Assembly: GCA_951406725.2 (NCBI GenBank)
Contig: OX597826.1
Coordinates: 49,228,001 to 49,292,000, forward strand
Source: Octopus vulgaris
Taxonomy: Eukaryota
DNA: 64,000 nt
Direction of reading: 5' to 3'
In this document: positions 23,626-61,392 of the stretch, in pieces
How the letters are laid out: each line of letters begins with the position of its first letter
Numbering within the stretch: position 1 is the stretch's first letter
Program-made: the position numbers and the translations under genes
The notes under the pieces: generated by a model
What the model was told of the DNA's origin: nothing
The model's input: the letters and a program-made list of their open reading frames with translations, nothing else
Databases searched by the model: none

Positions 23626-24023
23626 GTGAAAGATGACGTTCTGAGTTCAAAACTGGACTGAGGTCGTCTTTGCGTTTCACTCTTTCGAGAAGTGAAGTGA
23701 AAGATGGTGTTCTGAGTTCGAAACTGGGCTGAGGTCATCTTTACGTTTCACTCTTTCGAGGTCGATAAAACAAGTACTAGTGAAGTGAAAGATGGTGTTC
23801 TGAGTTCAAAACTGGGCTGAGGTCATCTTTGCGTTTCACTCTTTCGAGGCCGATAAAATAAGTACAAGTGAAGTGAAAGATGACGTTCTGAGTTCAAAAC
23901 TGGGCTGAGGTCACCTTCGCGTTTCACTCTTTCGAGGACGATAAAATAAGTACAAGTGAAGTGAAAGATGGTGTTCTGAGTTCGAAACTGGACTGAGGTC
24001 ATCTTTGCAAGTACAAGTGAAGT
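23626..24023 (+). repeat. SINE-derived minisatellite, 88-bp period, 5 partial/complete units
   Basis: gtgaaagatg recurs at 23626, 23697, 23785, 23873 and 23961; unit consists of the family B B-box and core. Confidence 0.9.
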
Positions 24024-31512: not shown

Positions 31513-32100
31513 TTAAGGCGATGAGCTGGCAGAAACGTTAGCACGCCGGGCGAAATGCTGAACGGTGTTTCGTCTGCCGTTACGTTCTGAGTTCAAATTC
31601 CGCCGGGGTCAACTTTGCCTTTCATCCTATCGGAGTCGATTAAATAAGTACCAGTTACGCACTGGAGTCGATGTAATCGACTTAATCCGTCTGTCTGTCT
31701 GTGCTTGTTTGTCCTCTCTGTGTTTAGCCCCTTGTGGGTAGTAAAGAAATAGGTATTTCGTCCGTCGCTTACATTCTGAGTTCAAATTCCGCCGAGGTCG
31801 ACTTTGTCTTTCATCCTTTCGGGATCGATAAATTAAGTACCAGTGAAACACAGGGGTTCGACATAATCGACTTAATCCGTCTGTCTGTCCTTGTTTGTCT
31901 CCTCTGTGTTTAGCCCCTTGTGGGTAGTAAAGACATAGGTATTTCGTCCGTCGCTTACATTCTGAGTTCAAATTCCGTCGTGGCCGACTTTGCCTTTCAT
32001 CCTTTCGGGATCGATAAATTAAGTACCAGTGAAACACAGGGGTTCGACGTAATCGACTAGTCCCTTCTTCTTCTAAAAATTTCAGGCCTTGTACCTATTG
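31513..32100 (+). mobile_element. SINE family B internal trimer
   Basis: One head followed by three B-box+core units at about 185-190 bp period. Confidence 0.85.
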
Positions 32101-37479: not shown

Positions 37480-38538
37480 TAAGCAAACCAGTTTAGTTGA
37501 GTCCAAAATTAATCTTTCAGTAGACAGGAAAAAAAAAATTTCTGTCCTTCTCTGATGAAGGCCTAAGAAGTCTAGAAACTGTTAATGGGGAGCCCTGATT
37601 TATTGAGGAGAACCCAGATGTTTATTTCTAACAAGGAGCATTGGATAAAATTACTTTCGATATCAGTCCCGACTTCGCGCTCTGGGTTCAGATCCTAGCG
37701 AGATCAAGTTTGTTTTATAGCCATAAATACCAGAAAGTATTTTCCCAATGTTCAAACAATTCCGCCAGCTTGCCATTTTAATGATAGCTTGAAATTTTGG
37801 CAAAAGCTTAGAATTTTTGAGGGGAAGGTCTTAGTTGGTACCATCGACTCCCGTGTTTCACTGGTACTTATGTATTTATGTTATTAACCCCACAAAACAA
37901 TAACAGTAATGTTGCTGATATTTAAGATTAAAATGTGATGCTGCTGTTGTTTTAACCCCCAAATCAACTCCGATCGAATAAATCTATGAAAGGTAACACG
38001 CCAACCGTGATTATCCTGGCTTTTGCATCTTTAGAATTACATTGCCTAAGATATCATTCCTTTAAAAAAAAACCGTTGGGCGCAAAATAAAGGAGATTTG
38101 GCGCTATTTCTAGCTATTCCAACGATCTAGGTGTGTGGATTTTACAAGGGCACGAGCTTGAACGTTCTGAAAGGAAAGGTTAATTTCTGTGAAACTCCCG
38201 GATTTCATTGGGGATTTTTTTCCCCTCAACGACCCCGGAAGGATGAAAGATAAAGGTGATATTAACGAACTTTGAACTTGGTAGAGGTAACTTTGTCTAA
38301 TTTTAAAATAGTTTCTATTGAAATGCCAAGGTCCACGGATTTTGTTAGATGGGGTGGGGGATAGCATTCGTTTAATGGGACCCTAGTGTTTGTTTTAGTA
38401 GCCCCGATAGGATGAAAGGACCAGCTACACTTCAGTTAGAATTCAAACCTTTTAGTCAATAAAGATCTACGTAAGTGAATTGGTTGAGCGCCCTTCTTTC
38501 GTTTGTCCACTCGTATGTATATGTGTAAACCTTCCCGT

Positions 38539-56233: not shown

Positions 56234-56305
<72 letters not shown>

Positions 56306-56393
56306 ATAGAAATGGTAAGACAACAAAAGAATGAAAGAGACCTCGATATTATGTAAATAAAGGAATTTATCTGTAAATGTAATTTTTCCGATG

Positions 56394-56463
56394 GCCGGAT
56401 AACTGAAGAGATAGCGGCGTGGATTTACACCCCGACATCCGAAACTCGGAGTTTTATCACGGC
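56394..56463 (+). ncRNA. Type I hammerhead ribozyme motif (Penelope/retrozyme-like)
   Basis: Stem I gccg-gataa / ttatc-a-cggc; core CTGAAGA 56403-56409; imperfect stem II 56410-56440; GAAA 56441-56444; stem III ACT-cgg-AGT; GUU cleavage triplet 56451-56453. Flanked by (TA)n on both sides. Confidence 0.7.
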
Positions 56464-56476
56464 GACCGAATAATTG

Positions 56477-56522
<46 letters not shown>

Positions 56523-59199: not shown

Positions 59200-59574
59200 A
59201 AAGTTATTTCATTGGTGTTATCCATTTCTGCTTTGTTTGTTTTTTTTAACTTCATCTCATTGACAAAAGCAATAAGACACGGTTGATTGTCTTCAGTCTG
59301 TGATGCCAAGCATTTCAGTTCCTAGCCATAAACTACGCGAATTTAGTTAATCCTGGTGCATACCGAACTATTAACATTAACATTATCATATTCTAATAAC
59401 GATAATGACGACGACGACGACGGCGGCAAATATTATTATTGAGCGAAATCCTTAGCATTACGTTCTGAGTTCAAATACCAACGCGGTCGAGTTTGCTTTT
59501 CATCTTTTCGGGGTCGATAAATTACTGTCCTTGTGGCAAATTTCAAACCATTATTATTATTATTATTATTATTA

Positions 59575-60047: not shown

Positions 60048-60416
60048 CCCCTGGCCCTCTGACCTGGGTAAATACTGAACACCTGGAAATAAGGAAGGGT
60101 GGCTGAGACCATACGTGTCTGATCAGGGTCGATCTGGCGCTGAATATTCGGAATCTCCGAGTGTCTCCGAAGGTTATGGATCAGTCAGTATTTGGGAAGT
60201 TTCTCTCCAAGGAACAGGTTTTTTCCCTACTTGAGCGATTGCTCATTCATGCATATCTGCATTCACTATATCACTGATATTGAGCAAACGAAAGATAATG
60301 GGTGATGCTGCTTGTTCAACAACAATAATAATTTATGTATAATATTTCTGTTATTATTTCAAAGTTTTGTTAAACTCACCATTTCATTTTTCTCTGTTTT
60401 TGTCTTTTACAGGATT

Positions 60417-60971
60417 ATGTCTTCTAAACGCAAAAATACACCCACCAAGCTCTATAAGGATAACATAATACTTGAGCAGTTACATTCTGACACATCCGAA
60501 TGTGATAACAGCAATTTAGACAGCGAAGGCGAAACTGGAAGAAACTATTCGGCACGTTTTCTCTCAAAATCTGATAGTAGTGAAGATTTTCATGATTCCG
60601 ACAGCGGTTCGGACAAGCCGCCAAACAAGAAGCAACGAATTCTTCAAAGTATAAGACACGACTCGGAATCCGAGCCCGAAACTGAACTTCAACATAACGT
60701 CACAACAAAACCCAACGCTGGGCTGCATCGAAAATCCATGGAAAGCGTATTGCAAAGACTCAACTCCAAATCTCCTGGAGTTCAAAATTCTGACATTGAG
60801 CGAACAAGTCCGCTCGGAAGCGCTGACCAAGAGGGAGGAGTGCTGGAGAATGTCAGTGCTTTACTCCGAGGAAAAGGGTCCATACAAGATAAATCAAAGA
60901 AAATCGTTGATATGATTTCGCAACTCCAGAAAATGAACGAAAGCTTGAAAAAACAAGGCGACAATACCAGG
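60417..60971 (+). CDS. SoxD: SoxD-family (Sox5/Sox6/Sox13-like) transcription factor, N-terminal coding exon (185 aa; exon 60413-60971)
   Basis: Non-repetitive ORF preceded by a pyrimidine tract and acceptor (tctctgtttttgtcttttacAG, AG at 60411-60412) and ending at donor AGG|GTAAGA (phase 0). Starts MSSKRKNTP (cf. Sox5 MSSKRPASP). HRKSMESVLQRLNSK resembles vertebrate RRKGSLADVVDTLKQKK, and LLRGKGSIQDKSKKIVDMISQLQKMNESL resembles the SoxD leucine zipper [33 protein letters not shown] (recalled). HMG box not in window. Confidence 0.82.
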
Positions 60972-61169: not shown

Positions 61170-61392
61170 TATATTGGCTTCAAATTTTGACACAAGGCCA
61201 GAAATTTCGGGATAAGAAGTAAGTCGATTACATCGATCCCCAGTATTCAACTGGTACTTATTTTGTCGACCACGAAAGAATGAAAGGCAAAGTCGACTTC
61301 GGCGGAATTTGAACTCAGAACCTAAAGACGGACGAAATGCTGCTAAGCATTTTGCCTGGCGTGCTAACCGTTCTGCCAGCTCACCGCCTTAA
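61170..61392 (-). mobile_element. SINE family B in SoxD intron
   Basis: Full-length reverse copy, CpGs largely intact. Confidence 0.85.

Follow-up and report, generated by a model that had tools for sequence, protein, structure and literature searches.

A hammerhead motif in a SoxD intron of Octopus vulgaris within a truncated and probably inert Penelope-like insertion

Small self-cleaving RNA motifs of the type I hammerhead class are found in several kinds of metazoan repeats. The closest described system to the one analyzed here is the Hydra clade of Penelope-like elements (PLEs), which is defined by the motifs RWK, DKT, and CxCX5C and by a GIY-YIG endonuclease domain at the C terminus with CxxC and CxH (PMC8557442). 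According to Craig et al. 2021, the insertions in this clade have (TA)n targets and include inverted truncated copies with a one-sided tail (PMC8557442). In the Hydra-clade rows of the supplement to that paper, we counted a GUU triplet in 10 of 26 and the stem III sequence ACUC-N-GAGU in 5 of 26. The minimal type I hammerheads that Cervera and de la Pena 2014 described for metazoan PLEs (PMC4209133) resemble the octopus motif in their long stem II, 5-bp stem I, and palindromic stem III, in being mostly solo motifs from truncated elements with opposite-strand pairs 100 to 700 bp apart, and in the prediction that a dimer is necessary. In published tests, a minimal PLE hammerhead of Schistosoma did not cleave as a single copy, and the cleavage of dimers and trimers was low (PMC4209133); a review described PLE hammerheads as slow even as dimers (PMC6765202).

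Two further systems invite comparison. Metazoan non-LTR retrozymes, as presented by Li, Clavereau and Pollet (bioRxiv 10.64898/2026.07.22.740005), likewise have a type I hammerhead, a relationship to PLEs, and many intronic copies (42-44% of the copies in Xenopus). The hammerheads of RECK and C10orf118, together with CPEB3, are sense ribozyme motifs in host introns of amniotes or mammals, as the octopus motif is in its own host; in these cases, the reports describe a single locus that is conserved across species and cleavage in vitro (PMC6765202, PMC3088659), whereas the octopus motif is one of thousands of repeat copies. In our literature search, no report joined SoxD, octopus, and a ribozyme, and a search that combined hammerhead ribozyme, Penelope, and octopus returned Craig et al. 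alone. We conclude that the octopus motif is very probably part of a truncated Hydra-clade Penelope-like insertion, with a hammerhead of the dimer type, and that it is likely inert in the SoxD pre-mRNA.

The hammerhead motif and its host intron

The window, a stretch of 64,000 nucleotides from the O. vulgaris assembly (contig OX597826.1, positions 49,228,001 to 49,292,000), contains a minimal type I hammerhead motif at 56394-56463 on the plus strand. A first-pass annotation had reported all of the hammerhead pieces at this place, and each was indeed present in the window sequence; the existence of the hammerhead-shaped motif is confirmed. Stem I is formed by 56394-56402 and 56454-56463. Specifically, GCCG (56394-56397) and GATAA (56398-56402) face TTATC (56454-56458) and CGGC (56460-56463), and A56459 is bulged. 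The core segment C3 to A9, CUGAAGA (CTGAAGA in the DNA), occupies 56403-56409 and is followed by stem II at 56410-56440, which consists of GAU/AUC, CGG/CCG, GUG/CAC, and a loop, with one unpaired C by G12. The interval 56441-56453 contains the GAAA core (56441-56444), the palindromic stem III ACUC-G-GAGU, and the GUU triplet (GTT, 56451-56453). In the window sequence, stem III has 3 bp, between ACT (56444-56446) and AGT (56450-56452), around CGG, and the cut is predicted to fall 3' of 56453. All of the core positions that mark type I membership (C3, U4, G5, A6, N7, G8, A9, G12, A13, A14, A15.1-U16.1, and H17) were found in the window copy, which has kept 11 of 11 core bases as well as H17.

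The extra base between stem II and G12, C56440, had gone unremarked in the first reading. In the consensus given in PMC4209133, the base without a partner sits between 9 and 10.1, on the 5' side of stem II, whereas in the octopus motif it lies 3' of stem II or forms a bulge after the G10.1-C11.1 pair. An unpaired base solely 3' of stem II was present in that form in 0 of the 26 Hydra rows (PMC8557442).

With a type I descriptor of our own, the motif was the sole match in the 108,590 bases of the intron that holds it, no second type I hammerhead being found on either strand, and there were 0 matches in 100 block-shuffled controls. A stricter version of the descriptor, with four contiguous stem II pairs, missed the motif, and a loose core pattern was too lax for use because it gave 22 overlapping matches at 7 places across the window. 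In 293 kb of flanking sequence, the descriptor found 5 further hammerhead motifs, which belonged to other families. A sense-strand sequence at 37552-37600 in the same intron resembles a hammerhead core (CTGATGA ... GAAAC) and fails the full descriptor. The Rfam check that had been proposed for the motif came back negative: a scan of the window gave nothing at the gathering score, and the Rfam hammerhead models at E values of up to 10 had no match in three small scans, which included the motif alone and a typical family copy.

The exon downstream of the motif (60413-60971, plus strand) has the conserved start MSSKRKNTPTKL, with its ATG at 60417. Its 185-aa frame matched 25 HMG-box proteins, which were mostly molluscan and, where named, were Sox5/6/13, SoxD, or egl-13. 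An HMG box is located 86 kb downstream of this exon on the same strand; judging from its motif, we take this box to be of the SoxD type. Contigs from three of four public runs covered exactly the SoxD exon and left it at the splice sites (the fourth run gave nothing). The contigs from two of the four runs extended upstream into C13:49179794-49179823, a sequence that is unique in the genome and is followed by GTAAGT. Thus, spliced contigs from runs of which none is recorded as RNA join SoxD exons across a 108.6-kb intron (C13:49179824-49288412), part of which occupies positions 1-60412 of the window on the plus strand. The contigs, the unique upstream exon end, and the GTAAGT place the motif in sense orientation in this intron, 3.95 kb from the acceptor, in at least one isoform. 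This location is confirmed, and it bears out the earlier placement of the motif in sense about 4 kb upstream of a SoxD exon.

The upstream SoxD exon (C13:49179790-49179823) has an in-frame ATG that adds about 12 residues, so the intron may interrupt coding sequence rather than the 5' UTR. In the relatives, the MSSKRK start is the same but the N-terminal extensions ahead of it vary, a pattern suggestive of alternative first exons. In the window, tandem arrays with 88-bp and 186-bp units were noted at 23626-24008 and 31564-32058; the units are presumably pieces of a common short interspersed repeat that is also seen at 59460-59530 and 61220-61390.

The insert and its parent element

The motif lies in an insert of 176 bp (56304-56479) with (TA)n on both sides, in good agreement with the roughly 170 bp first described. 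In the window sequence, the left (TA)n microsatellite, which is the likely insertion target, spans about 56236-56303, and the right one spans 56480-56520. The insert has two arms. The inverted arm (56304-56383, minus strand) is the element's 3' end in reverse complement; it covers about +113 to +30, counted from the predicted cut, and includes a tail of about 68 nt. It matched a long natural copy at 95% over 84 nt in BLASTN. The direct arm (56384-56479, plus strand) is the element's 3' end, truncated on its 5' side, and covers -69 to about +26; the two arms are joined at a short AT/TT overlap. Hence the window copy has the (TA)n site, the truncated inverted arm, and the one-sided tail described for Hydra-clade insertions (PMC8557442), although its tail of about 68 nt compares with 30-40 bp in that description. 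The layout probably arose when the endonuclease of the element cut (TA)n and reverse transcription from the element RNA halted early on both sides, which would leave two truncated 3' ends head to head, only one of them with the tail of about 68 nt.

Long copies of the family continue upstream into a 3' UTR of about 900 bases and then into GIY-YIG and RT frames. L082/L106 carries both frames, at a distance of about 900 bases upstream of this hammerhead, and three frames of L106 together aligned to residues 162-704 of a relative with 713 aa. When 30 loci were picked by UTR, most had the same hammerhead downstream and about ten had an endonuclease frame upstream. The family's own frames were all broken among those seen; the recovered part, which lies beyond the N-terminal region, contains CxCX5C, CxxC, and CP(H/Y/R). 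A sister family (L127, L129, and L130) has intact frames of 717 aa, some in tandem, which contain RWK, DKT, YKDD, CxCX5C, CxxC..E, and CPH; in all three loci, CxxC and CxH stand around E and N, alongside RWK, DKT, and the CxCX5C linker. The sister protein is about 81% identical in the C-terminal half, and the sister DNA matches the window insert at 89% in the tail and at 77-78% in the hammerhead region.

The sister frame thus supplies the combination seen in Hydra-clade PLEs, with RT and, at the C terminus, GIY-YIG together in a single short frame that lies upstream of the hammerhead. In Pfam searches, GIY-YIG was weak (E of 0.03-0.1, below the cut-off) and the family frames had no RT match. 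As in the C-terminal EN+ PLEs of the Hydra clade (PMC8557442), the frame is short and single and has RWK, DKT, CxCX5C, and a GIY-YIG domain with CxxC and CxH. The clade (PMC8557442) also shares the (TA)n target, a type I hammerhead close to the 3' end whose stem III is a 4+4 palindrome, and often GUU, as well as the inverted truncated arm with the one-sided tail. The family differs from Hydra-1_Obim, the octopus member in that paper (PMC8557442), because the listed stems I to III, compared by eye, are not the same. It also has the 3' UTR of about 900 bases in what is an older family, unlike the Hydra-clade elements as Craig et al. describe them (PMC8557442). On the sequence evidence, with the clade placed by motifs, the insert is assigned to the 3' end of a Penelope-like retrotransposon of the Hydra clade; the clade is known, and the family within it has no name. 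The suggestion that the type I hammerhead marks a Penelope-like element held up in that long copies run into an RT and GIY-YIG frame, and the search for copy number and linkage proposed with it gave both these upstream frames and the counts that follow.

A search of the 2.8-Gb genome with the insert gave 2,227 candidates, and all 40 that were scored had 81-100% identity. The genome contains 1,898 exact copies of a 22-mer that spans GAAA, stem III, GUU, and stem I, against 0 in the control. An exact 15-mer from stem I and the 5' core occurs 3,625 times (1 in the control), a count that includes older sister copies. From these data, the insert is a dispersed repeat and is not specific to SoxD; with thousands of copies, it differs from a conserved intronic host ribozyme at a single-copy, conserved locus. 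An intron of this size is expected to contain 0.14 copies with the core of this family, or 0.29 when the sister family is included, and other hammerhead families are extra. The chance of a sense copy of this family alone in such an intron is about 7%, which is low, so the base rate by itself is insufficient to exclude a role. When four public runs were compared with 56303-56482, only short pieces common to many copies were found, and none spanned the insert.

The window copy is, on model predictions, an average member of the family: it ranked 32 of 62 by predicted active fold. At 6 of 87 places, it differs from what most copies have in that column; two of the differences break stem II pairs that most copies have (56413 G>A and 56427 C>A), two turn G-U into G-C, and two are unpaired. 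The core was intact in 65 of 87 copies and in 16 of 21 copies that were chosen by UTR regardless of motif. The extra base at 56440 is C in 80 of the 87 copies, T in 5, and G in 2. GUU had been listed as a weakness of this copy, but it is present in 79 of the 87 family copies, as it is in the published Hydra-clade rows counted above; it is the family norm and not decay of the window copy.

Predicted folding and the prospects of cleavage

Folding was predicted with a nearest-neighbour model, which ignores tertiary contacts in the core and proteins. For the monomer, the model gave stem III pair probabilities of 0.0 and strongly predicted stem I, and the predicted share of the active hammerhead fold in the ensemble was about 8e-5, whether the motif was bare or placed in a 400-base context. 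G12 and A13 were predicted to be trapped in a competing UCCGA/UCGGA hairpin. Unconstrained co-folding of two copies yielded a predicted double hammerhead 7.9 kcal/mol below two monomers. These predictions are in line with the tests cited above for minimal PLE hammerheads (PMC4209133, PMC6765202). The motif is thus predicted to be of the dimer-dependent minimal type with a palindromic stem III, and the lone copy in the window is predicted to show little cleavage or none. In full-length tandem elements, as published work on the class suggests, two hammerheads would pair via stem III, which is palindromic, and cleave the precursor RNA. The partner would be the next repeat in the tandem element, and a solo intronic copy would lack one. 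The motif likely does nothing to SoxD because the lone copy is predicted to misfold. In mammalian cells, moreover, an intron with a slow hammerhead is reported to be spliced still (PMC2995048, citing Dye 2006 and Fong 2009), so even a slow cut need not matter. The first-pass annotation had envisaged a self-cleaving RNA in the pre-mRNA; that a working one of consequence sits there is not supported, given the predicted misfolding of the monomer, the lack of a partner in the intron, and the membership of the motif in a family of thousands of neutral-looking copies.

The copy could nevertheless cleave the SoxD pre-mRNA at a meaningful rate, as a protein-aided monomer or a trans dimer, and so tune SoxD output. 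The sense orientation in a transcribed intron, the intact core, and a stem I of 9 bp that is stable and has G-C in place of one G-U speak for such a role, as do thousands of possible partners with a compatible stem III palindrome. Family pieces were also found in two probable RNA runs, where they are not locus-specific. We consider this role very unlikely. Misfolding is predicted for the monomer, the window copy has two broken pairs in stem II, and even the dimers of PLE hammerheads are slow; splicing is reported to withstand slow cleavage in an intron, and spliced SoxD contigs exist. Even less likely, in our estimate, is the specific case of trans activation, in which RNA from the thousands of related and recently amplified Hydra elements would pair with the palindromic stem III, complete a double hammerhead, and cut the SoxD pre-mRNA. 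If it were true, the activity of a retrotransposon would set the output of a developmental transcription factor; every gene with a sense copy would be affected, and host pre-mRNAs could be cut genome-wide.

Copy layout, helix conservation, and sister families

The first-pass annotation had also mentioned retrozymes, and we considered whether the insert could be one monomer of a non-coding, fixed-length retrozyme or SINE-like unit that spreads via circular RNA. The insert is short, non-coding, and present in many copies with a type I hammerhead, and the best 30 BLAST matches all resemble a unit of about 175 bp. This uniform length reflects selection by the query. In a layout sample taken in genome order (27 of the first 30 family copies, 3 being dropped as same-locus duplicates), the direct arm starts were scattered from -24 to beyond -500, the inverted arm was attached on the 5' side in 11 of 27, and the inversion points varied. 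A fixed SINE of about 175 bp was dropped as a reading on these grounds. Retrozymes are described as non-coding tandem units (bioRxiv 10.64898/2026.07.22.740005), whereas the insert is a solo, truncated copy with variable ends in its family and a protein-coding parent whose long copies reach RT and endonuclease frames, and the locus has no tandem array. A retrozyme or SINE-like origin is therefore highly improbable, and a truncated Hydra-clade insertion is the reading that we retain.

Among 86 distinct family copies, 93% of the stem cells were paired and covariation was not above the shuffle control, as would be expected if the copies decay from few masters. The helices accordingly rest on the template and on the differences from the sister family. 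In copies picked by UTR, the non-CpG positions of the core varied less than the others (4/210 versus 66/1,323, p = 0.049), a weak difference. The least probable reading is that the hammerhead shape in the element's 3' end arose by chance or is a structure without catalytic function, for although there is no Rfam match, no significant covariation, and a CCGAAGA core in the young sister family, there were no descriptor matches in the shuffles, the core varies somewhat less, and the position, core, ACUC-N-GAGU stem III, and GUU are those of published Hydra-clade hammerheads.

For the window, the finding of a truncated Hydra-clade insertion matters little, since the gain is one further Penelope family of the Hydra type in a genome full of them. 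It does carry a caution, namely that hammerheads in introns of the octopus type are common repeat debris that Rfam misses. The lineage does have one use: it keeps the extra base by G12, and its youngest branch, with about 3,700 copies, has C for core U4. These copies are convenient material for the question of whether PLE hammerheads need to cleave at all, and a successful sister family with a weakened core bears on the need for that cleavage.

In the sister family (L127:3735-3800, L129, and L130; C3:139221500-139227000 and others), core position 4 is C in place of U, which gives CCGAAGA, and U replaces C before GAAA; its 19-mer occurs 3,739 times. The U4C change is reported to lower activity in vitro and still to allow viroid infectivity (PMC3088659). 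A second young Hydra-type family (L109-L118, e.g., C27:15433944-15436049) has a 727-aa frame, with 60 of 63 scored matches free of stops, and its own hammerhead upstream of the frame (a 2-bp stem II region, ACUC-A-GAGU, and GUA). This family gave the best genome matches to a distant Hydra protein and was rejected as the parent, having no DNA match to the window insert.

Across family copies L033-L062, the arms mostly end near +45 or near +113, counted from the predicted cut, so that there are two preferred 3' ends. In the two-armed copies, one arm takes each of them, and +113, with the full tail, never occurs on both arms. Three near-identical copies (L058-L060) with the same flanks lie about 8 kb apart at C1:57292340-57308616, a local tandem duplication, and carry both of the stem II changes of the window copy.
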